Source: Patescibacteria group bacterium
GTDB lineage: Bacteria; Patescibacteriota; Dojkabacteria; J137
Direction: 5' to 3'
DNA length: 64,000 nucleotides
Assembly (NCBI GenBank): GCA_016861265.1
Contig: BOLA01000001.1
Location: 523,569 to 587,568, forward strand
Shown here one piece after another: positions 45,454-62,322 of this stretch. Positions within the stretch are counted from its first letter, which is position 1. Each line of letters opens with the position of its first letter. Under the pieces are notes generated by a model. That model saw only the letters and a program-made list of their open reading frames with translations, did not search any database and was not told the origin of the DNA. Made by a program: the position numbers and the translations under genes.

Positions 45454-45534
45454 AACTAGAATTATTATAAGTAATTTATTTTACTAAACTAATTGAAATG
45501 GCGGGACACACAGGTCTGGAACCAATGAATACTT

Positions 45535-45614
45535 TGGTGAAGGGACTCGAACCCTCACAGATTTGCATCTAATTGTTTGGAAAACAATCGTGTCTACCAT
45601 TGCACCACACCTGG
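45535..45614 (-). tRNA. tRNA-like gene, anticodon loop UU-UCC-AA (Gly-type), with a long variable hairpin and an imperfect acceptor stem
   Basis: Reverse complement shows a D-arm GTGC/AATGGTAGA/(A)CAC, an anticodon stem ATTGT/ACAAT with loop TTTCCAA, a variable hairpin AGAT-GCAA-ATCT and a T-arm GAGGG-TTCGAGT-CCCTT. Only 4 of 7 acceptor pairs form (CCAGGTG versus CACCAAA), so it may be a damaged or atypical tRNA. Confidence 0.4.
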
Positions 45615-45689
45615 AATTCATCCACCAAAATATTCAATTTAATTATAACAAATGAGACATTTGAGACACCTAAAAAAGGAGTCTCAAAA

Positions 45690-46703: not shown

Positions 46704-46710
46704 GAATTCA

Positions 46711-48336
46711 TTATATCAACATCTCAACTCCATCATTATCAACAAACTTCCACTTCTTATTACTACTTGAAGTCTTTTCATGCTTCTTAAAGAATTTTTT
46801 ATTATCCTCAGCCATGTAAACCGTAAAGTAAGTTTTACCATTCGAATCTTTTAATTCTCGCCCAATTAATTCACCATTTCGGTTCATTTTACTAACTGTA
46901 GCAGAATGTAATCCAAATTCACTTTTAAATTGCCAACTCGCAATCCATAGATCATGATTCTTAATAATCTCAGCTGGTACTATCCCTTCTTTTACATTTC
47001 TTCTACAATCAGCACATTGAATACCATCTAGATTCCACCAAGACTCACTACCTTTAAGACCTCTAGAACAAAGATTACATGAATAACCAGATTCTCGGTC
47101 CTCTAAGAAGAAACCTTCGGGTTCTTTTTCCAATCTTTTCTTTCTTAGTCTCTCTGTTATTTCCATCTCTGCTAGTAGTCTTGCTATTTCTGCTGAGTTT
47201 GAATACTTTAAAAGTTTCTCGGGATCTATTTCTGTTTTAGGTTCTTCTTTCTTTTTACCAAACAATTCATGTAAATCTTCATCACGTTCATATCCTTTTA
47301 ATTGTCCCGAAATATACCCTAATCTATAGGAAGTACCATCTGGTGTAAGTCTCCAGTTTGTTATCTCTAAAGCTTCTTTAATTATTTTTTCTAATTCTTT
47401 AGTACTATCTTTACTGCTTCTATTTGTATCATTATCTTGAACTGAGAATGGAACTATAACAAATCGAGTAATTTCAGGTTTATCAAAGGCTAAATTTTTA
47501 AACTTATATTTAACTAGCTTTTTATTAAGTACCTTTTCAAGTTCAACGATGGTTAATCTTTTTATATTAAAGGTTCTTTCATAAACAGGATCTTGATATT
47601 TTTGAAGCTCATATTCGTATATTTCATTCATAAACTTTAGCTGTTCAAATCCATCTAGTAACTCATCGCCTTTTTCTTTTGACAAACAAAATTCTGATCT
47701 GTATTTTTCTAATAATGATTTCTCCTTTTGTTCTTTCTGTAATCTTTCCTCATCATTCTTTTTATAATCATCAATTTCAATATTCTTATAATCACATGAA
47801 GTACATTTTGTGGTAGTAGTAACTATGTCATCTTTTCGTTTAAACTTATATTTAACCTCTGATTTACATTTTGGGCAAAGATCTGGTTCATGGATCCATT
47901 CCTTTCCATCTTCCCAAACATGTTTACGCTTCTTACATGAGGGGCATTCGAAGAAAAATAACATTTTCTGTGGTTTAGCATCATGCCAATCAAGTGATTT
48001 CATTGTTACATCCATTAACTTATTGCAAGTTGAACACTTAATTGCTGGAGCTGGAGTATTATCATATTTATATTGCTTGAGTTCATCTTCTTCTATCCAT
48101 TCTTTAATTTCAGTTTCTCGATTCTTATATCTGTATAATTTGGTATTTAGAAGCTGTTCATGAAGAACTTGGTTCCAGCCATTATTGATTTCTTCTATTG
48201 GAGTATTTTGGATGTCATGAGATTTGAGTGAATCTTTAGCAACTTTGCTTATAAATTCAATTTTATCAAGACATAGTTCAATAGTTAGTAAATCATACCG
48301 ATCTTCATAGTATTGTTGATCTTGAAGATATTGCAT
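46711..48336 (-). CDS. hypothetical protein with multiple CxxC zinc-ribbon pairs
   Basis: CSTCNK, CPSCKK, CPKCKS, CTSCDY, CNLCSR and CADCRR pairs. 541 aa. 7 nt upstream of the PD-(D/E)xK gene. Confidence 0.5.
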   Translation of the reverse strand: MQYLQDQQYYEDRYDLLTIELCLDKIEFISKVAKDSLKSHDIQNTPIEEINNGWNQVLHEQLLNTKLYRYKNRETEIKEWIEEDELKQYKYDNTPAPAIKCSTCNKLMDVTMKSLDWHDAKPQKMLFFFECPSCKKRKHVWEDGKEWIHEPDLCPKCKSEVKYKFKRKDDIVTTTTKCTSCDYKNIEIDDYKKNDEERLQKEQKEKSLLEKYRSEFCLSKEKGDELLDGFEQLKFMNEIYEYELQKYQDPVYERTFNIKRLTIVELEKVLNKKLVKYKFKNLAFDKPEITRFVIVPFSVQDNDTNRSSKDSTKELEKIIKEALEITNWRLTPDGTSYRLGYISGQLKGYERDEDLHELFGKKKEEPKTEIDPEKLLKYSNSAEIARLLAEMEITERLRKKRLEKEPEGFFLEDRESGYSCNLCSRGLKGSESWWNLDGIQCADCRRNVKEGIVPAEIIKNHDLWIASWQFKSEFGLHSATVSKMNRNGELIGRELKDSNGKTYFTVYMAEDNKKFFKKHEKTSSSNKKWKFVDNDGVEMLI

Positions 48337-48383
48337 AAATAATTATATATTTTTTTGCTTTAAAGTTATAATTTCTGCATATT

Positions 48384-49835
48384 TTGATTGTTAATAATAT
48401 GCTCACAAAGTCTGATTTCCTAATTTATCTTGATGCCCCAAGGCATTTGTGGGCAGTTAAGCACGGCAAGGTTGTAGAAAATGAACTAAATGCGTATGTT
48501 AAACATTTATTTGAGCAAGGATATGAAGTAGAAAAATTAGCAGAGGAATACATTCAAGAATGTTTAATTCCCCAATATAAGGCTCATCAATCTGATGTAT
48601 TAATCCAACCTACATATATTGACGGTGATTTCGAAGCTAGAACTGATGTACTTATAAAAAATCCTTTCACAGAAAAATGGGATATGTTCGAAATCAAAAG
48701 TTCTACGAGTGTAAAGAAAACTCATCAATATGATGCTACATTTCAGGCTCTTATATTTCAGAAAAAGTACGACTTGGGACAAATACACATACTCCATTTA
48801 AATGGAAAATATATACGAGAAGGCGAAATAAACTTATCTAATTTATTTGTTGAAACTAATATTACTGAAAAGGTTGGATCACTTAAAGATGAGGTTAACC
48901 TATTACGTTGTAAAGCACTTGAAGATATAAAGGAAGATAGCTGTACTCATGTACTTGGATGTATCAAACCAAAAGAATGTATATGTTCAGATATATGCCA
49001 TCTAAATCTTCCTGAATATTCAATTTATGATATTAATTATTTAACAGGGAATGAAAAGAAAATAAGGGAGCTAGAAGAAAGAAGTATTATTAATATATTT
49101 GATATCCCTGAGGATTTTAAACTTTCAGAGAAACAACGATTTCAAGTCTCTGTTGCACAAAGTAAACAAGTGGTTATAGATATTGATTCAATTAAATTAG
49201 ACCTTAAAGGAATAGAATATCCACTTCACTTTATAGATTATGAATCTTTTAATCCAGCAGTACCTATATACAATGGATATAAACCATATGACCAAATGTC
49301 TTTTCAGTGGTCTCTACATGTTCAAAAAGAACCTAATGGTGATTTAGAGCATTATGAATTTATCGAACTAGAGAAATGTGATCCAATTCAAAATTTCCTT
49401 TCTGAGTTATCTAAAAAAATTAATCGAAGTGGTTCAATTATTGTTTGGAATAAAACATTTGAAGGTACGCAAAATAAACGTATGGGACAGATCCATCCAG
49501 AATTTGCCTCTTTTTGTGAAGACATGAATACCAGAATGTATGATCTAATGGATATCTTTAAGAATCAATGGTATGCAGATCCTAAATTCAAAGGAAGTTT
49601 TTCTATTAAAAAAGTACTTCCAGTGCTAGTACCAGAGTTAAGTTATGAGGGAATGAGTATCGCAGAGGGGGCTACAGCCATGGCAAGTTGGAATGAAATA
49701 ATATATGGAGAAAGTATTGAAGATGATAAAAAATTAGATACTAAAAACAATTTGCTTAAGTACTGTGAACTTGATACTTTGGCAATGATAAAGATATTCG
49801 CAGTCATTCAGAAAGTTCTAAATTATAACTATTAA
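48384..49835 (+). CDS. DUF2779-like protein with an N-terminal Cas4/RecB-like PD-(D/E)xK nuclease motif
   Basis: N-terminal LTKSDFLIYLDAPRHLW then D-VLIKNP...FEIKSS (D...ExK). The C-terminal half carries the HFIDYESF segment. Confidence 0.45.
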   Translation: MIVNNMLTKSDFLIYLDAPRHLWAVKHGKVVENELNAYVKHLFEQGYEVEKLAEEYIQECLIPQYKAHQSDVLIQPTYIDGDFEARTDVLIKNPFTEKWDMFEIKSSTSVKKTHQYDATFQALIFQKKYDLGQIHILHLNGKYIREGEINLSNLFVETNITEKVGSLKDEVNLLRCKALEDIKEDSCTHVLGCIKPKECICSDICHLNLPEYSIYDINYLTGNEKKIRELEERSIINIFDIPEDFKLSEKQRFQVSVAQSKQVVIDIDSIKLDLKGIEYPLHFIDYESFNPAVPIYNGYKPYDQMSFQWSLHVQKEPNGDLEHYEFIELEKCDPIQNFLSELSKKINRSGSIIVWNKTFEGTQNKRMGQIHPEFASFCEDMNTRMYDLMDIFKNQWYADPKFKGSFSIKKVLPVLVPELSYEGMSIAEGATAMASWNEIIYGESIEDDKKLDTKNNLLKYCELDTLAMIKIFAVIQKVLNYNY

Positions 49836-52800
49836 TCAATCTTCTATCCACTCAGAAGAAGTTCGTTTACCTGAGGAGATGTGTCCAACTACCCTACCAT
49901 TACTTAGTTGAAATATAAGTCCTACCTGTCGAACTCTTAACCCAAGAAGTGATCTAACCTCAAGACATATAGCAAGCTTCTGATCATCTGGAGATAGGAT
50001 AGAACTTTCAATTTTAGAATTTCGATTACTATATTCTTTGGGTAATTGATTCAGTATCGTAGACCATTGTTCAGATTTATCCGTACTACGATTAATTCCG
50101 TCAAGAAGCTGGGTAAGTGGTTCAAGAAAGATTTGCTCTCCAGATGTAAGATATTCAAAATAAATTTGTAAACCTGTTAACTCACAAATTTTCAAATCTT
50201 CAGGATGGCATTTTCTCCCACTCCATGCACATGGTTTAGCTTCAAGAGGTGAACAATAATTCCCTGTTACAGACTTTATAGCTTCTTTCTCCATTAACCT
50301 TGCTCCAGAAAGGCTGCTTGAGACAAAGAATTTCTTAAGGGCCTTTTCCCCTGAAAATACAGATTTCTCAAGTTCATCAGTCAATACTTTTTTGCCAGTA
50401 ATAGAACATTGTTCTAAAATCCCAGGTAGAACTATTTTATTAGTAATTTCACATTTTTCTCCTTCAGAAGGTAGTAATGGTTGTTTTGTTACTGCACAAA
50501 AAATGAATTCGTCTTTATGCCCAGTTTTTCCAGAGAAAATAGAACGTAATTGTTGATCTTTCCTATAAGTTTTTTTTGAAACTTCACTAATAGCCAACTC
50601 GTCTTTTAGAACTTCATCTCCCGTAAATTCACATTTACCAAAAAAACTTTGTTCGGCTTTCTTTCCACTTAATTGAGAAACTTTTAGCAGTGATCTCATA
50701 ACAGGTTTACCTGTAATTTGAGAATAATCAATTTCATCTATTAAGACACGTTTACCAGTAAGTGAACATATTATAGTATTATCAATTGTGGCTTTTCTGG
50801 AACTTATTTCTGATTGAATTAAAAGGTTACGCAATACTTTATTTCCAGTTATTGCATCTGACTCGAGGCAGTCTACAGGTACCTCTTTATTGGTTTTGGT
50901 ACATTTTTCTATTACTGGAACATTTAGAAATTTATTCTGAGATGGAGATAGAGTTATTTCACTAGTATAATTTTCACCACCATCAATATGGTAGTTTACA
51001 AGTATTTTTAATTCTCTGTGAACTGTCCCCTCAACACCTACCATATTGACATTAAGTCTAGGTGTAAAGTCATCATTTAGTCTCTTTCTTTTAATAAGAT
51101 CATCACCTGCACTTTGAATTTCTATTGATTTTCGTTCATTGTAAAATCTACAAAATTCAGATATCCCTTCATCGGCATTTATATTATTAATAATCTTATC
51201 TATTATAATTCCAATCGAACTAGGATCTTCTATAGTATTTGGTATTTTATCTAAGCCGTTTTTAATTTTATTATTATGTTCTATAGAAGAACAATCACTT
51301 TCGATAAGTCGCTCATAGCTATCGCAAGCTACTGTTGAGCGAACCCTAATGAGTGTTTTTCCATCAAAACATCTATATACATCTTTGATATTATAATTTT
51401 TAAAATCACCATTAAAACTATTGACCCATTTTCTTGATATCTCGTCAATCTTTTGTAATATACCATCATCTACATCTGAAACGTTGTGTAATGGGCTACT
51501 AGTTATCTTACCTACAAGACTCTCAAATGAACTTGTTCCTGGAGCATACAAATCACTGTCGGGAGATTTCAAATCTTCATTAAATTGTATTATTTTTATA
51601 TCGCCATCAAGATTACAGCTATATGAATCTATATCAATTTGTGAGATTTTACCCCCCAAGGATTCTAGTCCTAGTAGAGAAACCTCTTTCGCACTCAAAG
51701 ACTTAATTTGTTTAGGTAAATTAGGACATAATGGTCCCATATCTGAACTATCCATTGCACCGAGAAGTGTATTAATAACTTTTTGTTGAGCTTCTAATTC
51801 AACTTTTGCATTAGATATACTTTCCTCGGTCATTCGAGTTGCTTCTTCTATATCTTTTCCTGCTAGCGATGCGATAACAAGTTTACGGATCTGTTCTTCA
51901 AATCCATCTGAGACTTCGTCTTCATTTTCACTTAAACCAGAACCTTCTAATAACGATTCGATATCTCCAATGGCGTGAGCAGCCATCTGTAATTTTTCCA
52001 TTAATCGACCTACAATTTTTTCTTCAAAGGTATCTTTCAAGACTATATTAAAAATGCTTACATTCTTGTGCTCAGAGGCTAATCTTTGAATACGACCTAT
52101 TCGTTGCTCAACAATCATAGGATTCCACGGCAGATCATAATTAATTAGTACATTTGCCGATTGTAAATTTACCCCTTCTGAACCTGCTTCTGTAGATATA
52201 ATCACGTTAATTTCTGGATTGGACTTCTTAAATCTGGCTATCGTATCTTGGTTTCTTTGTCCTGAATCGCCGTTTATGAGTCCACATTTTATACCTAGTT
52301 TTTCTAGAAAGATTTGAATTGAGGTCTGTGTTTCTCTACGTCCTGTAAATATGACCAATCTCCATGCATCAGGTTTCTCGGAACGCAATCTCTCTACCAA
52401 GATATTTAACCCATTTAACTTTGCCGTCACCCCAACCCGTTTAACTACTTCTTGAACATCTATGGCTAGTGATTCAGGAATTGTCTGCCTTCTTGCCATG
52501 TTATTAAGTTGTGCAGATAATGCTTCGGGGCTACTTATAAGAGCTTGGAGAATAGATATTTGAGCTAATGGGTTGAGTTTTTGAATTGGTTCTGCAATTG
52601 TATTAATTAATTCTAGCTCCTCTTTAGATGGAATAACTCGATGGAGTTGCACTATCCTTTCTGGAAAATCAAGTTTTGCATCGATTCTCCTTACACGAGA
52701 CATATACCCATAAACAATTGAACGAAATTCCTCAGCTTTTTCTGGTTTTAAGTGACGAGCATCTGAACGATTATCAGCAATAAAATTTCTTGCGAATAAT

Positions 52801-53528
52801 CCTTCACTTCCAAGAGGATTTTCATGACCTCTAGCCACTGTTAACAAGTCAATGAGTGAGTATAAATCCCAAAGTCTATTGTGAATTGGAGTTGCGGTAA
52901 GCATCAATACATATTTAAATACTCTGTCCGATAAGGCTTGATGAAAACGTTTGGCAACTTGAGGGGTTTTCTCTACACCATATAGATTACGCAATTTGTG
53001 AGCTTCATCTAAAATCAACATTTCAAAACCTAATGTTGATAAGATGTCGAAATATATACGTGCGGATTGATATGTTGTAATTACTGCAACGGAAGAGTCA
53101 TCTGGAAAATTTAATTCTGTTAATTTCTTACCAATTGCTTCAATAGCTGTTATCTTAAATTTTAAATCTAGTTCTTCACGCCACTGAGGCATTAATATTT
53201 TGGGACAAACAATCAGTATCTTTGACACCCGATTACGGGATATAAGTTCGCTTATTATTAATCCGGCACTTATAGTTTTTCCTAACCCAACGTCATCAGC
53301 TAACAATGTAACAGGTAATCTCCTACAAAATGTGATTAAATTGGATACTTGATGTTGATATGGTTCAACATGATCTTTCCATTTATATTCTGACTTTATA
53401 TCACTTCTATCTTTTATTATAATTGGATCAATTAAATCCCATTCGAGTGCAGATTTATACAGATCATATTCTTCTTTATCTTTGGATTTTGAAAGTGCTT
53501 TAGTTTGAATGATAGAAGATGTATCCAT
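49836..53528 (-). CDS. SNF2-family (SWI2/SNF2) helicase/translocase with a roughly 650-aa C-terminal extension carrying tandem C-x2-TG-x2-VL repeats
   Basis: SNF2_N LADDVGLGKTISAG, DEAH box LILDEAHKLRN, helicase-C motifs (ISTEAGSEGVNLQ, QRIGRIQR). C-terminal repeats such as CSLTGKRVLIDEI, CEFTGDEVLKDEL, CEITNKIVLPGIL, CSITGKKVLTDEL. 1230 aa. Confidence 0.85.
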   Translation of the reverse strand: MDTSSIIQTKALSKSKDKEEYDLYKSALEWDLIDPIIIKDRSDIKSEYKWKDHVEPYQHQVSNLITFCRRLPVTLLADDVGLGKTISAGLIISELISRNRVSKILIVCPKILMPQWREELDLKFKITAIEAIGKKLTELNFPDDSSVAVITTYQSARIYFDILSTLGFEMLILDEAHKLRNLYGVEKTPQVAKRFHQALSDRVFKYVLMLTATPIHNRLWDLYSLIDLLTVARGHENPLGSEGLFARNFIADNRSDARHLKPEKAEEFRSIVYGYMSRVRRIDAKLDFPERIVQLHRVIPSKEELELINTIAEPIQKLNPLAQISILQALISSPEALSAQLNNMARRQTIPESLAIDVQEVVKRVGVTAKLNGLNILVERLRSEKPDAWRLVIFTGRRETQTSIQIFLEKLGIKCGLINGDSGQRNQDTIARFKKSNPEINVIISTEAGSEGVNLQSANVLINYDLPWNPMIVEQRIGRIQRLASEHKNVSIFNIVLKDTFEEKIVGRLMEKLQMAAHAIGDIESLLEGSGLSENEDEVSDGFEEQIRKLVIASLAGKDIEEATRMTEESISNAKVELEAQQKVINTLLGAMDSSDMGPLCPNLPKQIKSLSAKEVSLLGLESLGGKISQIDIDSYSCNLDGDIKIIQFNEDLKSPDSDLYAPGTSSFESLVGKITSSPLHNVSDVDDGILQKIDEISRKWVNSFNGDFKNYNIKDVYRCFDGKTLIRVRSTVACDSYERLIESDCSSIEHNNKIKNGLDKIPNTIEDPSSIGIIIDKIINNINADEGISEFCRFYNERKSIEIQSAGDDLIKRKRLNDDFTPRLNVNMVGVEGTVHRELKILVNYHIDGGENYTSEITLSPSQNKFLNVPVIEKCTKTNKEVPVDCLESDAITGNKVLRNLLIQSEISSRKATIDNTIICSLTGKRVLIDEIDYSQITGKPVMRSLLKVSQLSGKKAEQSFFGKCEFTGDEVLKDELAISEVSKKTYRKDQQLRSIFSGKTGHKDEFIFCAVTKQPLLPSEGEKCEITNKIVLPGILEQCSITGKKVLTDELEKSVFSGEKALKKFFVSSSLSGARLMEKEAIKSVTGNYCSPLEAKPCAWSGRKCHPEDLKICELTGLQIYFEYLTSGEQIFLEPLTQLLDGINRSTDKSEQWSTILNQLPKEYSNRNSKIESSILSPDDQKLAICLEVRSLLGLRVRQVGLIFQLSNGRVVGHISSGKRTSSEWIED

Positions 53529-53566
53529 ACTTTATTTTGATTTTATGGTTATCATTGGTAATTAAG

Positions 53567-54559
53567 TTAATGTGTACGCTGCATAATTAATTCTTCTTTC
53601 ACTTTTTGATGAGCTGTTGTTAGCATTTCTTTGACACCATTTTTAAACTTCGTATTTTCAAGTATCTGAGGTACCTTTACATTTCTTACAGTATCAGGAA
53701 GAGACAAATTTGCAAAGGCATTGGTTGGTCTATACTTGAAGTCTTTAAGATTAAAAACAGTCATTATCTTTCCATATTGAGCCTCAAAATCATTTATTAA
53801 TTCTTGAAGTTTTGATCTGAATAAATCTGGATGTAATTTTATGTATCTTTTATTTGTAAATCCAACCACTGAAGCTATATTAATCATATCATCCGCGGAT
53901 AATGTCGTGCCTTCTAGGATTCTTAGAGCTAATGCTTCGTCAATCTCCTCTTCTAATATAAATGGAGCTCTTTTTATTATATCGACTCTTTTTCTAGCAA
54001 TACTTGCGATAATTAAGGACCTTATTGCATATGAACGAAAAGATGCTTTTGAATGGTATTGTAGAAGTCGAATAATTTCATCCACAGCTTTATCATAATC
54101 TCCAACAAGTAAGTGTCTTTCTAATCCATAAAAATATAAAAATACATAGCTTAAATTAGTTTCTTGAGTGACATCTCTCAACCAGTTTAGATATTGATAG
54201 CGAGTCTCAGGATAAAATTTACTATAAGAAGGGTAATACATAGGATCTTTATATAAATCATTATTTGGTTTGATTGGAAGCTTTGTCCAAATCAAACTTG
54301 GTTCAGCGTAAAATCCATTTTCATTTTCCTTAAGTTCGGGACCGTTCTCAGTAAGAGTTATCGTTATGCTCATAGAGCCAGCAATTTCTATCTTAGATGT
54401 ATCTTCATCAGTTATCCATAATAAAGAAAGGGTGGGTTCAGGTATTCTTAATGAATCTCTAATATTATTATTTGTAGATCTACTGACACTAATAATCTTA
54501 TTATCAATATTTGGATTATTATTAGTTTTCTTAAATAGAGATCCAAGTAAATTGAACAT
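53567..54559 (-). CDS. hypothetical protein co-transcribed with the SNF2 helicase (possibly TerB-N-like, unverified)
   Basis: 330-aa ORF ending 38 nt upstream of the SNF2 start. Contains a conserved-looking YQYLNWLRDV...YFYGLERHLL segment. Confidence 0.45.
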   Translation of the reverse strand: MFNLLGSLFKKTNNNPNIDNKIISVSRSTNNNIRDSLRIPEPTLSLLWITDEDTSKIEIAGSMSITITLTENGPELKENENGFYAEPSLIWTKLPIKPNNDLYKDPMYYPSYSKFYPETRYQYLNWLRDVTQETNLSYVFLYFYGLERHLLVGDYDKAVDEIIRLLQYHSKASFRSYAIRSLIIASIARKRVDIIKRAPFILEEEIDEALALRILEGTTLSADDMINIASVVGFTNKRYIKLHPDLFRSKLQELINDFEAQYGKIMTVFNLKDFKYRPTNAFANLSLPDTVRNVKVPQILENTKFKNGVKEMLTTAHQKVKEELIMQRTH

Positions 54560-54677
54560 AATATTCTTAAATGATTAACTTTTTAATTTAATAATATAGA
54601 GATTTTACTACTTTTCTCTTGCATTTTATATTGAGATATACTTAGCCTTCCTCACAAATTTGTATTATAATCATGGC

Positions 54678-54848
54678 ATAAGAGACCTAACCTCATATGG
54701 ATTTTTCTATGTGAGCATGGTTTCTAAACAAAATCGTACGACACGTAAAAACGGCTTCTCAGCCGGTATCGTGTCGTACGTCTACAAGGGGGAACTCTTG
54801 TAGGGCAGCCCGAAAGGGTGTAGCCACTGGTCTGAGAAGTCGTTTTTT
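54678..54848 (+). ncRNA. candidate structured RNA or regulatory element (GC-rich, nested hairpins, pseudoknot-capable)
   Basis: -10 TATAAT at 54666-54671; perfect 11-bp inverted repeat CGTACGACACG (54735-54745) / CGTGTCGTACG (54770-54780) enclosing the hairpin CGGCTTCTCAGCCGG; GNRA-capped hairpin GGCAGCCC-GAAA-GGGUGUAGCC (54804-54825); segment ACTGGTCTGAGAAG (54826-54840) complementary to CTTCTCAGCCGGT; then a T6 run. Confidence 0.35.
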
Positions 54849-54965
54849 GCTATTAAGCCTCAAACACTTTCCAAATCAGCACGTAAATTAATTTTTAATA
54901 CTAATTGCCTATGACAATAAGCTTATAAGTACAGCTAGCTTACTTTTATTTTTTATTATTTTTAT

Positions 54966-55478
54966 ATGGCTCAAGATCAAAATAGTACTATAGGAACAGC
55001 AAAAAAATCCTTTATTAAAGGAATTAGTGGAACTGTAGGAATAATAGGAGGATTGTTGCTTTGTTGCTTAGTTGTTGCTGTAATGGTTGCTATGTCACAA
55101 GGTAGTAAGACACCAACTAATGACTCGTCCAGCAATAGTTCAAACACTAGCTCTAATACACCCAAACATGATCCAGTAAATTTAACTTTTACAGGAAAGG
55201 GTAATAAAGATACAGATAGTTTTACTTTGTATGATGGAACTGCAAAAATGACAGTTACTACATCAGGTGGATCTGTGGGTACATACTCATCAGTAACTTT
55301 GCAAAAAGAAGGCGAGAATATGTTCTTAAATGGACTAACTGGCGAAGATTTAAATATCTCAACTAAGGGTTCAGAAGATGGTCATGGAGATACAACAGTT
55401 AGAGGAATAAAAGAAGGTAAATATTACATTTCTGTTATTTCAGGTGTTGACTGGAGTGTGACTATAACTCAAGAGTAA
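54966..55478 (+). CDS. membrane-anchored Ser/Thr-rich secreted protein, unknown function
   Basis: N-terminal transmembrane helix GIIGGLLLCCLVVAVMVAM, S/N-rich linker, beta-rich C-terminal domain. Confidence 0.5.
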   Translation: MAQDQNSTIGTAKKSFIKGISGTVGIIGGLLLCCLVVAVMVAMSQGSKTPTNDSSSNSSNTSSNTPKHDPVNLTFTGKGNKDTDSFTLYDGTAKMTVTTSGGSVGTYSSVTLQKEGENMFLNGLTGEDLNISTKGSEDGHGDTTVRGIKEGKYYISVISGVDWSVTITQE

Positions 55479-55498
55479 TAATCAAACCACTAAACCTA

Positions 55499-55522
55499 AG
55501 AGACCTCGTGATGAGGTCTCTT
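55499..55522 (+). terminator. rho-independent terminator-like hairpin (agagacctc gtgatg gaggtctct)
   Basis: 9-bp stem followed by a T-rich stretch, immediately after the 54966-55478 CDS. Confidence 0.55.
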
Positions 55523-55533
55523 TCTATATCAAG

Positions 55534-56223
55534 ATGTATAATCTAACTATGACTATTGAAGAACTTAATAAACATATAGAATCACTAACTCTTCCGCATA
55601 AGAAACTTTTAGAAATTTTTCAAAATGTATATAAACCATTTGAAGAGCTATCTGAAATTTTAGGACATCAGGTATATGTAGATCCTACAACATTTGAAAC
55701 ATTAGTTTCTATTTTTCCTACTGAAAAAAGTCTAAAAGTTTCAATCGAAGAGATAACGGCAAATCCAGATATTTACTTTATCTACACAAACCATGTAAAA
55801 CTTCCTCGATATAGAGACTCACACATTATTGTAGATAAACAAACTGCATTTTTAATAAATAAGCTTGATATGACATTTAGACGAAAATTTTACTTAGGAA
55901 TAAAAAAAGTTCCATTCAATAAAAATACTTCAGTACTTAGAATTGAAGACTACACCTTTGAAATAGATAAAGACTCTGACACATATAACCTATGTCTTAT
56001 GCTATTTGGTTCTAAACAATATATTAATCGAATATGGAAATGGAATGATATCTTAGATAAAGTAATGGGACATAGCGATGAAAGAAAAGATGATGTGAAT
56101 GCTTTTAAACTTAAAGTCTATAGATTAAATCTAAGACTATATAAAACTGGGTATAAGAATATAATTTTGTATAAAAATAAAACAGTGCGTGTAAATCCTG
56201 AGTATATCTTCCTCTTCAAATAG
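55534..56223 (+). CDS. hypothetical protein
   Basis: 229-aa ORF. Confidence 0.45.
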   Translation: MYNLTMTIEELNKHIESLTLPHKKLLEIFQNVYKPFEELSEILGHQVYVDPTTFETLVSIFPTEKSLKVSIEEITANPDIYFIYTNHVKLPRYRDSHIIVDKQTAFLINKLDMTFRRKFYLGIKKVPFNKNTSVLRIEDYTFEIDKDSDTYNLCLMLFGSKQYINRIWKWNDILDKVMGHSDERKDDVNAFKLKVYRLNLRLYKTGYKNIILYKNKTVRVNPEYIFLFK

Positions 56224-56287
56224 ACACCGAACCTGACCGAAACCCACTTCATGATGTAATTAGATAATAATTTTTATCTAATTATAT

Positions 56288-57616
56288 ATGGAAGAAAAAC
56301 TTCAAACTGTCTATGTAAATATAGACGATCTTACCAAAGCTGACTACAACCCAAGGAAATGGGATGAAAAAGCACTTTCAGATTTAAAAGAAAGCATAAA
56401 GCGATTCGGCATAGTAGATCCAGCTATAGTAAATTCAGCTGAAAGTAGAAAAAACATAGTGATTGGTGGACATATGCGTATTGAAGCAGCTAAAGCTTTA
56501 GGTCTTAAAGAAATGCCGGTAATTTATCTGGATATTTCAGATATCGAAAAAGAAAAAGAGCTTAATTTAAGACTTAATAAAAATCAAGGTGAGTTTGATT
56601 TCACTCTACTTGCAAATTTCGCAGAAGATCTATTACAAGATGTGGGTTTTAACTCTGAAGAATTAGACTCAATCTTTGATTGGGATGATGACAATCCAGA
56701 AGTTTTTGATTTAAAGAAAGAACTTGAAAAATTAAATATTAAAGAGATTGAAATACAAAAAGGCGATGTTTGGCAACTAGGTGAAAGTAAATTAATGTGT
56801 GGTGATTCTACAATCGAAGAAAATGTTTTGAAACTTATGAATGGTGAAAAAGCAGACATGTGTTTTACTGATCCTCCGTATATTCTGGATTATCTTCATG
56901 GTAAAAAGAAAAATGGCAAACCAGTTGAGGGCTTTGGAGCTAAGAGAAATAGAAAGTATTTAGAAACAGATGAACTTCCTGATAACTTTACAGAATTATG
57001 GATGGGGAACGTATCTAAAATTTCAAAAGATAATTTTCACATCATTGTTTATGAAAATTGGAAAAATATACGAACTATTTGGAATGAAATTGAAAAATAT
57101 TGGAAAGTTAAAAACATGTTAGTTTGGCATCTTCCAAATAGAAATCAGGGATTTGCAGCTAAATATAAGTTCTTTTCAAAGCATGACATTGCAATGGTAG
57201 GTTCAACTGAAAGATCGGAAACTTTTAATTTAAATCCTGAAGATGAGCTTTTACAAAATGAATATGAAACTGCACTTTATGCAATAGCTGGCAAACCTCA
57301 TTGGGAAGGTTATGAAAAAGGTAAAAAAATCCAGCCAACAGATTTTATTGAATATAAAGCTTCAGATGAAAAAAGTTCTGGGCAAGGAATTATATTTGGA
57401 ACAAAACCACTAGAGATTTTAATCCCATATATCAAAGTTTTAACAAAGAGAGATGATTTGATAATTGAACCATTTGGAGGAAGTGGTTCAACTCTTATTG
57501 CTTCAACAAAGATGAAAAGACGATGCTACTTAATGGAAAAGTCACCAGTCTATGCAGAAGTTATTAAAAACAGATGGGAAAAGTTAACTGGTGAGAAAGG
57601 AGTAAAAATATCATGA
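56288..57616 (+). CDS. ParB-like nuclease domain fused to a DNA N6-adenine/N4-cytosine methyltransferase (beta-class)
   Basis: ParBc GGHMRIEAAKALG; methyltransferase motif IV CFTDPPY before motif I EPFGGSGST (beta permutation). A phage-typical fusion. Confidence 0.8.
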   Translation: MEEKLQTVYVNIDDLTKADYNPRKWDEKALSDLKESIKRFGIVDPAIVNSAESRKNIVIGGHMRIEAAKALGLKEMPVIYLDISDIEKEKELNLRLNKNQGEFDFTLLANFAEDLLQDVGFNSEELDSIFDWDDDNPEVFDLKKELEKLNIKEIEIQKGDVWQLGESKLMCGDSTIEENVLKLMNGEKADMCFTDPPYILDYLHGKKKNGKPVEGFGAKRNRKYLETDELPDNFTELWMGNVSKISKDNFHIIVYENWKNIRTIWNEIEKYWKVKNMLVWHLPNRNQGFAAKYKFFSKHDIAMVGSTERSETFNLNPEDELLQNEYETALYAIAGKPHWEGYEKGKKIQPTDFIEYKASDEKSSGQGIIFGTKPLEILIPYIKVLTKRDDLIIEPFGGSGSTLIASTKMKRRCYLMEKSPVYAEVIKNRWEKLTGEKGVKIS

Positions 57617-58014
57617 AGAATAAAAAGAAAGAATTAGTTGAACAACTAAGAAAAACTCCTGTTATTGAAGTTGCCTGTAAAAAGATTGGAATTGGTAGAG
57701 CGACATTCTACAGATGGAAGAAACGAGATCAGAAGTTTGCTGAGGAAGCGGAATTTGCCTTGAATGAAGGTTCTCAGTTAGTTAATGATATGGCTGAAAG
57801 CCAATTAATAACTTCAATTAAAAATGGAAATATGACAGGAATTATATTTTGGCTTAAAAATCACCATAAGCAATATTCTCCAAAACTTGAGGTCACGACA
57901 AAAAGTGCTGATCTTCCGCTAACTGAAGAACAAAAAGAAACGATTAGAAGATCGTTGAGCATGGCATTTAATTTAAATATTAATAATGATGAAAATGAAG
58001 AAGCTACAAATTGA
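57613..58014 (+). CDS. putative terminase small subunit (N-terminal helix-turn-helix)
   Basis: HTH IGIGRATFYRWKK. Small basic protein immediately upstream of and overlapping the terminase large subunit. Confidence 0.45.
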   Translation: MKNKKKELVEQLRKTPVIEVACKKIGIGRATFYRWKKRDQKFAEEAEFALNEGSQLVNDMAESQLITSIKNGNMTGIIFWLKNHHKQYSPKLEVTTKSADLPLTEEQKETIRRSLSMAFNLNINNDENEEATN

Positions 58015-59458
58015 TCAAGACTACTCATTGCCCATGGAAGTTATTGATGAAATACTAAATGATAAGCAAGTTCGTAAGGAATTAATAAGAGAAAGTCATT
58101 ATTGGTTCTTTCATTTGTATTTCAGTGAATATGTGAAGTATTCAACGGCAGATTTTCAAAAGGAAATGTTCAAGATTACTGAAGATGATAAAGTCAAAAT
58201 GGCAGTGATTATTGCATTTAGAGGCTCGGCTAAATCAACAATTATGACTATGTCCTATCCTCTTTGGGCGATAATTGGAAAACAAAAAAGGAAGTGTGTA
58301 GTAATAATATCTCAAACTCAACAACAGGTCAGAACTCACTTTGCAAATTTAAAGCGTGAATTAGAAAGCAATGAAATTTTAAGAAACGATTTAGGTGCAT
58401 TAGAAGAAGAATCTGATGAATGGGGATCATATTCATTAGTCTTACCTAAATTTAATGCAAGACTTATTGCAGCATCAAGTGAGCAAAGTATCAGAGGAAT
58501 AAGGCATGGTGCAAATAGACCTGATCTAATAATTTGTGATGATGTTGAAGATATAAGTTCAGTGAAGACAAAAGAGGGTCGAGATAAAGCATATAACTGG
58601 CTATCAGGCGAAGTTATTCCCCTTGGTGATCAAAATACAAAAGTAATAATGATAGGAAATCTTCTACATGAAGACTCTTTGTTAATGAGATTAAAGAAGA
58701 AAATTACTGAAGAAAATATGAATGCAATATTCAAGGAGTATCCTATTGTTGATTCTGAAAATAATATTCTTTGGGAAAGTAAATTTAAGAACCTTGAGGA
58801 CATTGAGAATTTTAAAAAGATTATAGGAGATGATAAGGCTTGGCAAAGAGAATATATGTTAAAGATTATTCCGGAAGACGACCAACTAGTGTATAGAGAA
58901 TGGATTCAATATTATGATGAATTACCACAAAATACCAGTAGTTATAAATACACTATAATTGGTATTGATTTGGCAATTTCAACAAGTACATCTGCAGATT
59001 ACACAGCTATGATAACAGCGCATGTTTTTGGTTATCTAGAAAATCTTAAAGTATATATATTACCAAATATATTTAATAAGAGAATTGAATTCCCTGAAAT
59101 AGTCGATACCGTAAAACAAAAAGGTAGAGAAAAGTACTACAGCAGAAGACCAGAGATTTATATTGAAGATGTTGGATATCAAGCATCTGTAATACAAGCA
59201 CTGAAGAATCAGAGCTTAAATGTTAAAGGATTCAAAGTTCATGGTCAAGATAAACGAGCAAGGTTAAATTCCGTAACTCCATATATAAGATTTGGACAGG
59301 TCCTTTTTCCTAAGCAAGGAGCAGAAGAATTAATTCAACAGCTAGTCTATTTTGGTGTAGAGAAGCATGATGACCTAGTTGATGCATTTTCGATGCTAAT
59401 GATAAGAGTTTCAGAAAAAGATAGACCTGGTGTGCAAATTTTACCCTATTATTTCTAA
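57986..59458 (+). CDS. phage terminase large subunit (ATPase plus RNase-H-like nuclease)
   Basis: Walker A AFRGSAKST, Walker B PDLIICDDVED, C-terminal nuclease acidic residues (GIDLA...D...D). Confidence 0.6.
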   Translation: MMKMKKLQIDQDYSLPMEVIDEILNDKQVRKELIRESHYWFFHLYFSEYVKYSTADFQKEMFKITEDDKVKMAVIIAFRGSAKSTIMTMSYPLWAIIGKQKRKCVVIISQTQQQVRTHFANLKRELESNEILRNDLGALEEESDEWGSYSLVLPKFNARLIAASSEQSIRGIRHGANRPDLIICDDVEDISSVKTKEGRDKAYNWLSGEVIPLGDQNTKVIMIGNLLHEDSLLMRLKKKITEENMNAIFKEYPIVDSENNILWESKFKNLEDIENFKKIIGDDKAWQREYMLKIIPEDDQLVYREWIQYYDELPQNTSSYKYTIIGIDLAISTSTSADYTAMITAHVFGYLENLKVYILPNIFNKRIEFPEIVDTVKQKGREKYYSRRPEIYIEDVGYQASVIQALKNQSLNVKGFKVHGQDKRARLNSVTPYIRFGQVLFPKQGAEELIQQLVYFGVEKHDDLVDAFSMLMIRVSEKDRPGVQILPYYF

Positions 59459-59502
59459 TAAATAGCTGGACTTCATTTGATTGTAGCGGTACTGTCCTTG
59501 GT

Positions 59503-60831
59503 ATGAAAACAATTAACCAAGAACAAATCCGCTACTGCTTATATGCAAGAAAATCATCAGAATCAGATGAGAAACAAGCAATGAGTATTGATGGGCAACT
59601 TATGGAGATGAAGGCTCTAGCAAAACGAGAAAAGATTGAGATTATTGAAGTTATAACAGAAAGCCATTCAGCAAAAGAAACTGGTCAAAGACCTCAATTT
59701 AATTACTTGTTAGAGAATATTCAAAAGGGAAAATATAACGCCATAATTACTTGGGCACCAGATAGAATTTCTAGAAATGCAGGTGATCTTGGTCGAGTTG
59801 TTGATCTAATGGATCAAGGAAAGCTTCTATTTATCAAAACTCATTCTCAAACTTTCAGCAATAATCCAAATGAAAAGTTCTTATTGATGATTCTATGCTC
59901 TCAGGCAAAACTAGAGAATGATAATCGAGGTATTAATGTCAAAAGAGGTCTAAGGAATAAATGTAGCGTAGGAATTAGACCAGGTATGGCTCCGATTGGA
60001 TACTTGAATACAATGAAAGGAAATAGAATTGCATCTGTAGACTTAGACCCAGAACGAGCACCTATAATTAAAGAGATGTTTTATAAAGTTGCTAATCAAG
60101 GATATTCCGGTAGGATGGTTAAAAAATGGTTAGACAAACAAAACTTTCAAACAAAAAAAGGTTATAAATTAAGCTTAGGAAGAATTTATGTTGCTCTCAG
60201 TAATCCTTTTTATTATGGAGAATTTCAATATGGTAAGAAATGGTATAAGGGAATACATGAGCCTTTAATCTCCAAATATATTTTTGATAAAGTTCAAATT
60301 CAGCTGGAAGTTGTTCCAAGACAATGGAATAAGCAAGTCTTTCCATTTAAAAAGATTTGTAAGTGCGGTGGCTGTGGTGGAAGTGTTACAGCAGAAGTTA
60401 AATACAGAAGAACAAAGAAAGGAGTTATTAATACTCATATCTATTATCACTGCAATAGAGTTAGAGATTATGACTGTGACGAGCCATACATCACTGAGGA
60501 AGAGTTAATAAAACAACTAGTTACTTATTTACCGGAAATAAATTTAGACTCTAACTATTTATGGAGTGAATTAAATGATGAAATTAGAAGGTTAGATAAT
60601 TTAAAAGAAATTATTATAAAAAATAATGAAGCTCCTATTCAGTTAACTCTACCTAGAACTAAAGGAGAGATATTAATTTGTGAACAAAAATCAAATGAAT
60701 ATATACTACAAGAATATTTAGTTCACATACTTCAGTTTGGTACACCAGATGAAAGAATTAAAATCTTAAATGGAATAAAATCCCAGTTTAAATTAACAGA
60801 AAGAAAGCTAATTGTTAATAACAACATCTGA
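59503..60831 (+). CDS. large serine recombinase (resolvase/invertase N-terminal domain, recombinase domain, zinc ribbon)
   Basis: Catalytic-Ser motif YARKSSESDEKQ, DRISRN and a CKCGGCGG...YYHCNR zinc ribbon. Confidence 0.8.
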   Translation: MKTINQEQIRYCLYARKSSESDEKQAMSIDGQLMEMKALAKREKIEIIEVITESHSAKETGQRPQFNYLLENIQKGKYNAIITWAPDRISRNAGDLGRVVDLMDQGKLLFIKTHSQTFSNNPNEKFLLMILCSQAKLENDNRGINVKRGLRNKCSVGIRPGMAPIGYLNTMKGNRIASVDLDPERAPIIKEMFYKVANQGYSGRMVKKWLDKQNFQTKKGYKLSLGRIYVALSNPFYYGEFQYGKKWYKGIHEPLISKYIFDKVQIQLEVVPRQWNKQVFPFKKICKCGGCGGSVTAEVKYRRTKKGVINTHIYYHCNRVRDYDCDEPYITEEELIKQLVTYLPEINLDSNYLWSELNDEIRRLDNLKEIIIKNNEAPIQLTLPRTKGEILICEQKSNEYILQEYLVHILQFGTPDERIKILNGIKSQFKLTERKLIVNNNI

Positions 60832-60875
60832 TCTTATCAGAATCTTTTACAAAATAGAAAATATTAATTTTAAAA

Positions 60876-60892
60876 ACTCTTAGTATAAGAGT
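60876..60892. promoter_or_regulatory. 17-bp palindrome ACTCTTA-gta-TAAGAGT overlapping the -10 of the BlaI-like repressor gene (putative autoregulatory operator)
   Basis: Perfect inverted repeat immediately followed by TATAAT (60893-60898), 26 nt before the repressor ATG. Confidence 0.45.
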
Positions 60893-60923
60893 ATAATTCA
60901 TATTTAAATATCTAATATAAATT

Positions 60924-61298
60924 ATGCTTAAACTTACTGGAGATTTGGAACAAGAAATAATGAATATATTATGGGTTGATAGTGAACCTCTTATACCTTC
61001 TGTAATCCAATCCAGATTATCAAAAAAACTAGCCTATACCACTGTGAAGACAATATTAGAAAGACTTCATGATAAAGGCTTATTAAATAGACAGAAAAAA
61101 TCGGGTGTGTATTATTATAGTCCTAAAGTCTCAAAGGAAAGTTATGGTTCAAAAAGTTTAAGATCAGTTTTTAAAAACATTCTTGGATCTTATGGTAATT
61201 TAGCGATCTCTCAATTTATTGAATCTATAAAAGAAGAGCCTGAGAGTCTTGATCTATTAAAAAAATATTTAGAAGATGAGGAAAATAAATCAATATAA
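60924..61298 (+). CDS. BlaI/MecI/CopY-family transcriptional repressor
   Basis: Winged helix with LEQEIMNILW...TVKTILERLHDKGLL. Confidence 0.7.
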   Translation: MLKLTGDLEQEIMNILWVDSEPLIPSVIQSRLSKKLAYTTVKTILERLHDKGLLNRQKKSGVYYYSPKVSKESYGSKSLRSVFKNILGSYGNLAISQFIESIKEEPESLDLLKKYLEDEENKSI

Positions 61299-62259
61299 TC
61301 AACAAAAGAATATATCATTTTTTCTGTTACTGCTTTTAGGAACAACATATACAATTCTGATTGGAATTATTGTTACAAAAATACTACCTGGGTTTATTAT
61401 GCAACTGTTATATATTATAGATACAGTAAAACACGAGACTTACTTATTAGATCTGTTGACCTCTAAGGACTTTTACATATATTTAATAGGAGGTTTGGTT
61501 ATTTGTTACCTTCTAATTAGATATATTAAAGCAACAATTAGAATGGCTATTTCTATTGTGACTTCAAAAATATATACTGATTCCTTTACTTGGGTTCATA
61601 ATAACGAATATGTATTAATTGATTCAAGCGAATCACTTGCTTTTACTTCTGGGTTATTATTCCCCAAAATCTATATGTCGAATTCTCTAATAGATAAACT
61701 AAGCAAAGATGAACTAGAAAGTGTTCTCTTGCATGAAAAGCTGCATCAAAGTAACTACGATCCTTTAAGAAAATTAATCCAGGATTTCTTGTCAGACTTA
61801 ATACCTTTTATGCCTGATAAGAGCTTCATATTTCATAATTATAGTCTTCTTTCAGAGTTAAGTGCTGATTATAATTATATTAATATGAGAGGTAATAAGA
61901 AAAACCTTTTAAGTGCATTAGATAAAATGTTAAAACCAACAAAAGTGGTTATTAGGTTAAATATTAGTAATTTTTCGTTCAACCATGACAGAGTTAAGAT
62001 TCTATTAGAGAATGATAAGTTCAGAACTAAAAGATATTTTTCTTCGATTACATTTAATATATCATCTGTACTTATATTTTCTTTTATTCTTTTAAATTCA
62101 TCAATATTTATAGTTTGCAATAATATTGAAGAGTGTATCAATGCAGTAGTCTATACAACATATGATCCAGATCCAATGCCTTGTCTACAGTCATCATCAC
62201 AGTTTCACTGCAGTGTCTTTACTAAAAATCATCAAAAAAATTCGTCCACCTCTATATAA
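61276..62259 (+). CDS. BlaR1-like M56 peptidase-domain membrane protein (signal transducer/antirepressor), lacking a penicillin-binding sensor domain
   Basis: Transmembrane helices plus HEKLHQSNYD (HExxH...D zincin motif in the BlaR1 arrangement). C-terminus is a transmembrane segment plus a Cys-rich tail instead of a PBP domain. Confidence 0.6.
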   Translation: MRKINQYNQQKNISFFLLLLLGTTYTILIGIIVTKILPGFIMQLLYIIDTVKHETYLLDLLTSKDFYIYLIGGLVICYLLIRYIKATIRMAISIVTSKIYTDSFTWVHNNEYVLIDSSESLAFTSGLLFPKIYMSNSLIDKLSKDELESVLLHEKLHQSNYDPLRKLIQDFLSDLIPFMPDKSFIFHNYSLLSELSADYNYINMRGNKKNLLSALDKMLKPTKVVIRLNISNFSFNHDRVKILLENDKFRTKRYFSSITFNISSVLIFSFILLNSSIFIVCNNIEECINAVVYTTYDPDPMPCLQSSSQFHCSVFTKNHQKNSSTSI

Positions 62260-62322
62260 TCAATCTTTTCTTTCTGCTACAACTGTAGTAATATAAGTAA
62301 GTAATTTATTATTCACCTACTT

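Follow-up and report, generated by a model that had tools for sequence, protein, structure and literature searches.

The closest described counterpart of the element reported here is the LOOT RNA motif (Rfam RF03000), which came from the set of 224 candidate RNAs of Weinberg et al. 2017 (PMC5737381) and joined Rfam with release 14, as one of its 'metagenomic-based' families (PMC7779021). Its structure has been given as about 43 base pairs in six helices (Rivas 2020). LOOT has until now been an orphan, catalogued from metagenomes and carrying the Rfam type 'Gene; sRNA': a literature search found no paper on a host or a function for it, and the main text of Weinberg et al. 2017 does not discuss it.

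Aside from LOOT itself, parts of the element recall other systems. Terminator/anti-terminator leaders are, like LOOT, promoter-proximal and possess two exclusive helices with a common strand, a GC-rich helix at a U-tract and a gene close behind; LOOT departs from them in that its predicted terminator helix closes around two whole hairpins and in that the competing hairpin, P2, lies upstream. The c4 RNAs of phages P1 and P7 and the CI RNA of phage P4 are antisense RNAs for immunity that derive from the very transcript they target. LOOT is similar to these in being a structured RNA in the transcript of a temperate element, with a complementary site just downstream and a pair that covaries between relatives, but it bears no sequence or Rfam relation to them, and the genes behind it are accessory cargo. 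With regard to gene organisation, prophage 'moron' or lysogenic-conversion cassettes next to an integrase are an established concept of phage genomics. The LOOT unit is likewise autonomous from promoter to gene, carries variable membrane, surface or defence cargo and often lies beside a recombinase; a structured, conserved leader RNA as a standard part of a moron cassette is, to our knowledge, without precedent.

A further likeness concerns tertiary contacts. The 11-nt receptor for GAAA tetraloops has the canonical form CCUAAG_UAUGG, as in group I introns, and its insertion variant CCUAAAG_UAUGG is still functional. The internal loop of the LOOT helix P1, CCUAA(A/C)C..G(C/U)AUGG, shares CCUAA and AUGG with this receptor but has one extra nucleotide per strand and a C-G pair in place of G.U; judged by its letters, it resembles the 11-nt GAAA receptor.

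Here we describe a copy of LOOT in a stretch of 64,000 nucleotides (referred to as the window) together with its homologues. The element is a further copy of a known, uncharacterised RNA family and not a new kind of element. What is new lies at the level of the family, namely a switch helix, hosts among the CPR bacteria, a leader position in mobile elements, and membrane and defence cargo. The Rfam model says nothing of the 3′ tail helix and its U-tract, of CPR bacteria as hosts, of a setting in mobile elements or of the ORF that constantly follows, and the literature search brought up none of these.

Identity and Anatomy of the Element

With the curated thresholds of Rfam 15, a scan of the whole window returned two matches only, one tRNA and one LOOT. 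The latter scores 55.3 bits against a gathering score of 46.4 (cmscan) and is full-length, covering model positions 1-121 of 121 with an E-value of about 1.1e-7 over the whole window. A covariance model of our own, R1, scores the same copy at 140.9 bits, and seven copies found with R1 in genome bins all obtained 60-82 bits when rescanned with the Rfam model, which supports the identity. That the structured element is a LOOT RNA can be taken as virtually certain. The initial annotation, made from the letters of the window, had recommended such an Rfam/Infernal scan and had noted a resemblance to SRP RNA domain IV. This resemblance did not hold up, since a permissive scan of 54400-55100 (E ≤ 1) excluded the SRP, 6S and retron families and yielded, besides LOOT, one sub-threshold chance match to malK-II. 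No match of the element to the C4 family was found in either the whole-window or the permissive scan, and blastn of the element against 50,697 phage records gave no match. A reverse transcriptase was not identified among 14 large ORFs scanned between 45690 and 63162, with Pfam applied to ten ORFs in 45690-59458 and PHROGs to ten ORFs in 53567-63162.

The element occupies a 406-bp spacer between a minus-strand ORF ending at 54559 and the first plus-strand ORF downstream (Table 1). All six helices of the family are present in the consensus order, and the same architecture is found in model R1. As in the Rfam motif, there is a CCUAA-C/G-CAUGG loop, an A-rich linker, and GNRA-capped P3 and P4 hairpins, and the conserved nucleotides CCUAAC, GCAUGG, the GU junction and the P4 GAAA loop are retained. 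In the Rfam alignment, 5 of the 44 pairs are non-standard in the window copy (four in outer P2b and one in P4), which further differs from Rfam LOOT by a longer linker, a bulged P3 with GGAA for GAAA, and a longer P4. The RF03000 model stops at P4; the covarying tail helix and the U-tract lie beyond it.

Table 1. Features of the LOOT copy and its immediate surroundings, in window coordinates
Feature	Position	Strand	Basis or remark
-10 hexamer TATAAT	54666-54671	+	Read from the sequence; ends 13 nt before the first LOOT nucleotide
LOOT core (helices P1, P1b, P2a, P2b, P3, P4)	54684-54825	+	Rfam RF03000 and model R1
5′ domain P1/P1b	54684-54722	+	Rfam consensus alignment; covariation
P1, 4-bp helix	54684-54687 / 54719-54722	+	Covaries in homologues
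Internal loop UAAC / CAU	54688-54691 / 54716-54718	+	Rfam consensus alignment
P1b, 9-bp hairpin	54692-54700 / 54707-54715	+	Covaries in homologues
A-rich linker UCUAAACAAAAU, P1 to P2	54723-54734	+	Aligns to Rfam consensus AAAA, with an insertion
P2 hairpin	54735-54780	+	Sequence, Rfam alignment, covariation in homologues
P2a, perfect 11-bp stem CGTACGACACG / CGTGTCGTACG	54735-54745 / 54770-54780	+	Sequence
A-rich bulge of P2	54746-54751	+	Sequence, Rfam alignment
P2b, CGGC/GCCG with loop UUCUCA	54752-54755 / 54762-54765	+	Sequence, Rfam alignment
GU junction after P2	54780-54781	+	Rfam alignment
P3 hairpin CTACAAG / CTTGTAG, GNRA loop GGAA (family consensus GAAA)	54782-54803	+	Rfam alignment and covariation
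P4 hairpin, GAAA loop	54804-54825	+	Rfam alignment, fold, covariation
3′ tail ACTGGTCTGAGAAGTCG	54826-54842	+	Complementary to 54747-54767; outside the Rfam model
U6 tract	54843-54848	+	Sequence; outside the Rfam model
Minus-strand hairpin and T-run	54765-54752	-	Terminator scan
First downstream ORF, 170 aa, putative regulated cargo	54966-55478	+	N-terminal membrane segment, no family match

The TATAAT box, the 11-bp repeat, its inner hairpin, the CTACAAG and GAAA hairpins, the tail and the T6 run of the initial annotation were all found where it had placed them. Its start of the element, 54678, comes close to that of the match; the 5′ domain, which belongs to the same RNA according to the Rfam alignment, had gone unrecognised. 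The plus-strand RNA folds at -75.2 kcal/mol (z = -7.65), a stability equalled by 0 of 200 shuffles, and the minus strand gives z = -4.37. The structure is far beyond chance. The earlier view that the locus holds a structured RNA beyond a plain terminator agrees with this fold and with the covariation seen across the family.

Homologues and Covariation of the Rfam-Type Fold

About 100 further LOOT copies were collected, the majority of them in genome bins of Patescibacteria (CPR). A first, loose DNA pattern run on IMG/VR gave 120 loci, nearly all of which were chance matches or group I introns, with a single LOOT among them (L022); the phage group I introns caught in this way also contain a loop of the P1 type. 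The neighbours of L022 are those of the window copy, a ParB_N/N6_N4 methylase fusion (65% identical) and a large serine recombinase (45%), and loci retrieved via the methylase gave more LOOTs. Model R1 was built from a hand alignment of five copies, using MAFFT with N padding, and extends 30 nt beyond the Rfam model; MAFFT alone misaligned LOOT RNAs. A selective DNA pattern derived from the copies in hand gave 17 matches in IMG/VR, 10 of them true, and at least 120 loci when run on one genome per GTDB species, where R1 finds LOOT in 94 of the first 100 loci listed. The sample drawn in this manner is a subset of the family, and the window copy itself fails the pattern. As the pattern fixes CCTAAMC, GCATGG, GGTC and GAAA, conservation of those letters is not to be judged from the sample; the GAAA loop of P3, for instance, is almost invariant in it, with GAAA being fixed by the pattern itself. 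The tail, the promoter and the ORF are no part of the selection.

In the R1 alignment of 102 sequences, the Rfam-type fold (fold A) has 95% of its cells paired, compared with 34-42% in slid controls. As for covariation among these aligned homologues, 40 of the 44 pairs change on both sides, with support for every helix. Pairing reaches 97% in P2a (10 of 11 pairs changed on both sides), 96% in P2b (5 of 5), 97.8% in P3 (7 of 8) and 93.8% in P4 (7 of 7). P2a stands apart in that G.U pairs make up 0.8% of its pairs versus 13-21% in the other helices, and the spacing between its arms varies among homologues. Fold A is a set of hairpins in a row without a multi-helix junction. The receptor-like loop and the A-rich linker aside, it has few conserved unpaired nucleotides; the linker is recognisable in 96 of 102 homologues, which have at least three A among the 6 nt on the 5′ side of P2a.

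An Alternative Helix Formed by the 3′ Tail

The minimum free energy (MFE) fold of the window RNA adopts a tail helix between 54747-54767 and 54826-54847, with 21 bp, a duplex energy of -31.0 kcal/mol and its end in the U-tract. The partner of the tail in the tip of P2 consists of the A-run or bulge, the 5′ strand of P2b, the loop and part of the 3′ strand. This arrangement, referred to as fold B, is a property of the family: the 17-22 nt 3′ of P4 are complementary to the P2 tip in every one of the about 100 homologues. In an alignment-free test, P2 tips paired with their own tails at a mean of -25.1 kcal/mol, with the tails of other LOOTs at -14.1 (sd 5.1) and with shuffled tails at -10.8, and the own tail ranked first of 102 in 40 cases, with a median rank of 2. 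In an alignment made with a second covariance model (R2), in which the tail helix is encoded, both sides have changed in 16 of its 16 pairs and pairing reaches 93.2% of cells, with slid controls for the whole structure at 40-46%; since that alignment is fitted to fold B, the alignment-free comparison weighs more. The helix also holds conserved U.G wobbles, which can be formed by the plus strand only, and bears an A-run on its 5′ side. At least four U are present in the 8 nt after its GC-rich part in 104 of 104 copies.

Fold B shares with intrinsic terminators a GC-rich helix directly before a U-tract. In place of the short loop of a simple terminator hairpin, it has a 'loop' of about 75 nt that holds P3 and P4, and in the window the helix encloses about 58 nt (54768-54825) with both hairpins; the consensus terminator scan did not call the fold B helix on the plus strand. 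Folds A and B are exclusive because the tail helix takes a strand of P2b and the link to P2a, with 0-1 nt, is too short for a helix of about 18 bp. On these geometric grounds the tail helix should be unable to coexist with P2a, and a full pseudoknot, in which P2a and the whole tail helix would be present at once, was rejected as a candidate. The initial annotation had proposed mutually exclusive folds of the tail and the first hairpin, which proved to be conserved and covarying in about 100 homologues, and had also used the word pseudoknot, of which the pairing itself is real and the joint occurrence with P2a falls away.

The two folds are closely balanced in nearest-neighbour estimates of their energy. 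Over 102 copies, constrained MFE values average -58.2 kcal/mol for fold A and -58.5 kcal/mol for fold B, the difference has a median of 0.0 and quartiles of -3.5 and +2.2, and fold B is the more stable one in 51 of 102 copies. The corresponding values for the window copy are -64.7 (A) and -67.1 (B). The energies of P2 and of the tail helix correlate with r = 0.44, a value that is partly built in because the P2 tip belongs to both of them. The window contains no second sequence complementary to either the tip of P2 or the tail, which favours action in cis.

The strand of the element had initially been left ambiguous on account of a hairpin with a T-run on the minus strand. This feature exists, but the ambiguity does not survive, because what reads as a T-run there is the opposite strand of the A-run with which the U-tract pairs on the plus strand.

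Hosts and Genomic Setting

Among the matches listed, 55 of 80 source names belong to Patescibacteria/CPR lineages, including Saccharibacteria, Gottesmanbacteria, Parcubacteria, Microgenomates, Uhrbacteria and Nomurabacteria. The rest comprise ten named 'bacterium' only, 11 from other phyla with LOOT, and four loci without a LOOT match; the 11 copies under other phyla could be due to mis-binning or to a wider host range. The window carries dnaA, ftsK, argS, murE and tsaD, and the named homologues of its DnaA (57-74% identity) are all from Candidatus Dojkabacteria (WS6).

Upstream of LOOT, a -10-like hexamer with at most one mismatch ends 3-40 nt before the element in 82 of 101 loci, compared with 22 of 101 in a control interval of equal width. 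The signal emerges only when variable spacing is allowed; none was detected at a fixed distance from the LOOT start in the homologous loci. The perfect TATAAT of the window and its counterparts in these 82 loci bear out the earlier proposal that the element has its own -10 box.

Downstream, 88 of 94 copies have an ORF of at least 60 aa on the same strand whose start, counted from the model end, falls between -10 and +100 nt, against 43% at random positions. The median offset is 28.5 nt, which leaves no space for a separate promoter. The gap in the window is longer than usual: 118 nt lie between the U-tract and the ORF, a space that could accommodate a promoter for the ORF itself. ORF calling was crude throughout, and the first gene call underestimated downstream ORFs on the same strand. 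The proteins encoded downstream stem from many unrelated families, and neighbouring proteins as a whole form 724 clusters among 934. A feature many of them have in common is an N-terminal hydrophobic segment, found in 37 of 58 downstream proteins versus 22% of other neighbours by the first gene call (odds ratio 6.4, p = 4e-11) and in 52 of 88 downstream ORFs by the corrected call. Other downstream cargo includes type I and type III methylases, trypsin-like proteases, nucleases and DUF proteins.

Counts of neighbours are limited to the short flank that each locus offers; in it, a large serine recombinase lies near LOOT in 39 of 102 loci, often immediately upstream and divergent. Other recurrent neighbours are the ParB-methylase (21), a small-terminase-like HTH protein (15) and the large terminase (14), and LexA- or XRE-like regulators recur as well. 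The unit of LOOT and cargo takes several positions and orientations with respect to the backbone genes. In the window, it is located between a Shango-like TerB_N/SNF2 defence cluster and a ParB-methylase/terminase/recombinase module, and the genes flanking the element diverge from it. A tRNA-Gly gene lies about 9 kb from the unit; no repeats of this gene marking the ends of an element were found. LOOT here belongs to a mobile island, rich in defence genes, that is integrated in a Candidatus Dojkabacteria chromosome. The family is now placed in Patescibacteria, within mobile elements that bear recombinases and terminases.

Proposed Mechanism and Competing Explanations

The order of promoter, core, P2, tail, U-tract and close gene points to a leader with a terminator/anti-terminator choice. 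Briefly, LOOT would be transcribed on the plus strand from its own promoter, with the TATAAT of Table 1 as the -10 box. In fold A, the P2 hairpin would be formed and the 3′ tail free, so that RNA polymerase would continue into the downstream ORF. In fold B, P2 would be open, and its tip and the tail would form a helix of 17-22 bp around P3 and P4 that abuts the U-tract; this arrangement is built like an intrinsic terminator, at which a transcript of about 165 nt would be released. We infer that fold B terminates, that P2 is the anti-terminator and that the balance between the two is regulated. In our estimation, the proposal that LOOT is a leader RNA gating read-through into cargo genes has about the same chance of being right as of being wrong. 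As to the trigger, a protein, Mg2+-dependent docking of GAAA into the P1 loop, or folding kinetics are more likely than a metabolite, since the cargo is heterogeneous and conserved unpaired nucleotides are few. With a receptor-like loop in P1 and a GAAA loop in P3, tertiary docking could stabilise one of the folds. A terminator 'loop' with two hairpins would be atypical, and the tail would have to displace a P2 that has already folded; both observations speak against the leader model.

Of the candidates named by the initial annotation, the small RNA and the riboswitch-like switch bracket the two leading explanations, the read-through leader and a stand-alone sRNA that acts in trans. The sRNA would have its own promoter and always end at the tail helix and U-tract, giving a product of about 165 nt that binds a protein or an RNA elsewhere; the alternative between P2 and the tail would then reflect folding order, and expression of the ORF would be independent or due to leakage. 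The promoter signal and the universal U-tract predict such a discrete transcript, a compact fold with GNRA loops and a receptor-like loop would suit a stable RNA, and the filing of RF03000 by Rfam as an sRNA gene counts for this explanation and against the leader. A same-strand ORF about 30 nt behind the element in 88 of 94 copies, without room for a promoter, is hard to reconcile with it, as a constitutive terminator would silence that ORF. Nor would a plain terminator need to have the P2 and terminator folds held equally stable by selection, and a complementary target is absent from the window. We therefore consider the stand-alone sRNA unlikely, noting that terminated leaders can act in trans as well, which makes the two accounts compatible. 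Some second-messenger riboswitches precede diverse surface-protein genes, so the cargo of LOOT has a precedent if the core, with the P1 receptor and the GNRA loops of P3 and P4, were the aptamer of a metabolite- or ion-sensing riboswitch and P2 and the tail its expression platform. The position in a 5′ UTR, the terminator/anti-terminator pair and the tertiary-contact motif would fit; fold A, however, lacks a multi-helix junction and has few conserved unpaired nucleotides, and the downstream functions (restriction-modification methylases, proteases, nucleases and many uncharacterised membrane proteins) are mixed and without a metabolic theme, which renders a riboswitch improbable. It is also distinctly improbable that LOOT is an immunity RNA of the c4/CI kind, the core of which would be processed in the lysogen and the P2 tip of which would pair in trans with the tails of nascent transcripts, made by the element itself or by a relative entering the cell, and force their termination, the covarying tip and tail serving as the specificity (hetero-immunity) determinant. 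RNA and complementary site do share one transcript, compensatory changes distinguish the pairs of different elements, and the modules around LOOT, in which terminase genes, a serine recombinase and LexA- or XRE-like repressors occur, resemble those of a temperate phage. Against it, the genes behind LOOT encode membrane, secreted and restriction-modification cargo and not antirepressor or replication functions, the Rfam scans gave no C4 match, and proximity favours intramolecular pairing.

Function at the level of DNA is very doubtful, whether the element were to serve the large serine recombinase next to it as an att site, to act in packaging, or to form a cruciform or a single-stranded hairpin. 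P2a is a strictly Watson-Crick inverted repeat with the low G.U content given above, the recombinase is present in the available flank of 39 of the 102 loci, and the position and orientation of the unit vary. All the other helices and the tail helix, on the other hand, rely on G.U or U.G wobbles, which are A.C mismatches on the opposite strand, and the GNRA loops, the upstream promoter, the downstream U-tract and the variable spacing of the P2a arms do not suit a DNA element either. Serine-integrase att sites are short imperfect dyads, unlike a 140-nt unit of multiple hairpins. The replication, att or packaging site entertained by the initial annotation gives way accordingly to an RNA of the plus strand, as indicated by the G.U wobbles, the GNRA loops, the promoter and the U-tract. 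There is next to no chance that the locus is a plain bidirectional intrinsic terminator between divergent or convergent operons. Such a terminator would explain the hairpin and T-run on the minus strand, the helix and T6 on the plus strand, and the A-rich linker 5′ of P2a, which on the minus strand makes a stem followed by a U-tract. The six helices with their 44 covarying pairs would be superfluous in it, as would the two GNRA hairpins and the receptor-like loop, and the genes on either side in the window point away from the element instead of converging. As a complete account it is refuted by the family-wide covariation of P1, P1b, P3 and P4.

Returning to the leader model, a more specific and clearly more tentative version of it is that LOOT represents a new class of bistable leader in the mobile elements of CPR/Patescibacteria. 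An energy-balanced switch between P2 and the terminator helix, held by a tetraloop-receptor contact, might there control surface and defence cargo in answer to a signal derived from the element or the host, such as a protein, a second messenger or the growth state. Genomes of CPR bacteria are tiny, hardly any genetics exists for them and only a few of their regulators are known; a widespread RNA switch on the surface and defence genes of their mobile elements would, if true, offer a handle on gene regulation in both host and phage. The tail-helix alternative and the near-invariable cargo ORF provide a family of 'unknown function' with a hypothesis that can be tested by mutation. A minor aspect concerns the antisense strand, on which P2 may double as a terminator; with its strictly Watson-Crick stem also ending antisense transcription, LOOT may act as a two-way insulator of gene cassettes.

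Gene content around LOOT

In the neighborhood of LOOT, the Rfam RF03000 structured RNA, the window and the IMG/VR locus L022 share homologous flanking genes, with 65% identity between their ParB-methylases and 45% between their serine recombinases, while the large terminases enclosed by them (57986-59458 in the window, 2416-3741 in L022) have no BLASTP similarity to each other. This combination of dissimilar terminases and homologous neighbors points to shuffling of modules within elements of this type. In the window, genes for the small and large terminase subunits are followed directly by that of the large serine recombinase (57613-60831). No portal or capsid genes were found in the 18 kb visible, which suggests that the prophage is not complete but satellite-like or rearranged.

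The upstream side, between a tRNA-Gly gene and LOOT (45690-54559), looks like a defence island, judging from its predicted proteins. These comprise a 337-aa protein matching PD-Lambda-3_A of PADLOC (1e-33), a 1230-aa SNF2 helicase with similarity to DrmD/BrxH/HmaA/ZorD-type helicases, a DUF2779 protein, and a TerB_N protein (53567-54559, minus strand) matching SngA of Shango (3e-17).

Coordinates of LOOT and other features
Feature	Locus	Position	Strand	Remark
tRNA-Gly	window	45531-45615
P2a	window	54735-54745 / 54770-54780		alignment A7 columns 85-95 / 144-154
Short LOOT-like match	L168	461-569	+	model R2
Short LOOT-like match	L182	401-515	+	model R2
Convergent LOOT pair	L182	3618-3767 / 4269-4412	+ / -
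Tandem LOOT pair	L250	1265-1405 / 2498-2645	- / -
Group I introns	L050	308-3503		four within 3.5 kb
Group I intron(s)	L085	59-826

Watson-Crick pairing in P2a

Covariation in helix P2a is strictly Watson-Crick, with G.U pairs at 0.8% compared with 13-21% in P1b, P3, and P4, and a conserved A-rich linker lies directly 5′ of the helix. Since the minus strand of a perfect stem with such a linker would give a perfect hairpin followed by a U-tract, these features could reflect a terminator on the antisense strand; they could also be read as recognition of the helix by a protein or through A-minor contacts.

Unusual copies, introns, and hosts

Two short LOOT-like matches to R2, the covariance model including the tail helix (~110 nt, 37-40 bits), adjoin reverse-transcriptase genes, and both missed every Rfam gathering score. 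In two loci, paired LOOT copies lie at most ~1 kb apart, each copy being followed by small downstream ORFs of its own. The IMG/VR contigs L050, L085, L017, L059, and L118, retrieved with a loose pattern, carry group I introns (Rfam Intron_gpI), and the loop 'CC UAAA C..G CAU GG' of these introns repeats the tetraloop-receptor-like motif found in P1 of LOOT.

Among the matches listed, bona fide LOOT also occurs in bins labelled archaea, Gammaproteobacteria, Bdellovibrionales, Verrucomicrobiia, or Gastranaerophilales (L183, L197, L258, L201, L223, L224, L247, L225, L256, L232, and L257). Either CPR or phage contigs may have been assigned to these bins in error, or LOOT may have a wider host range.
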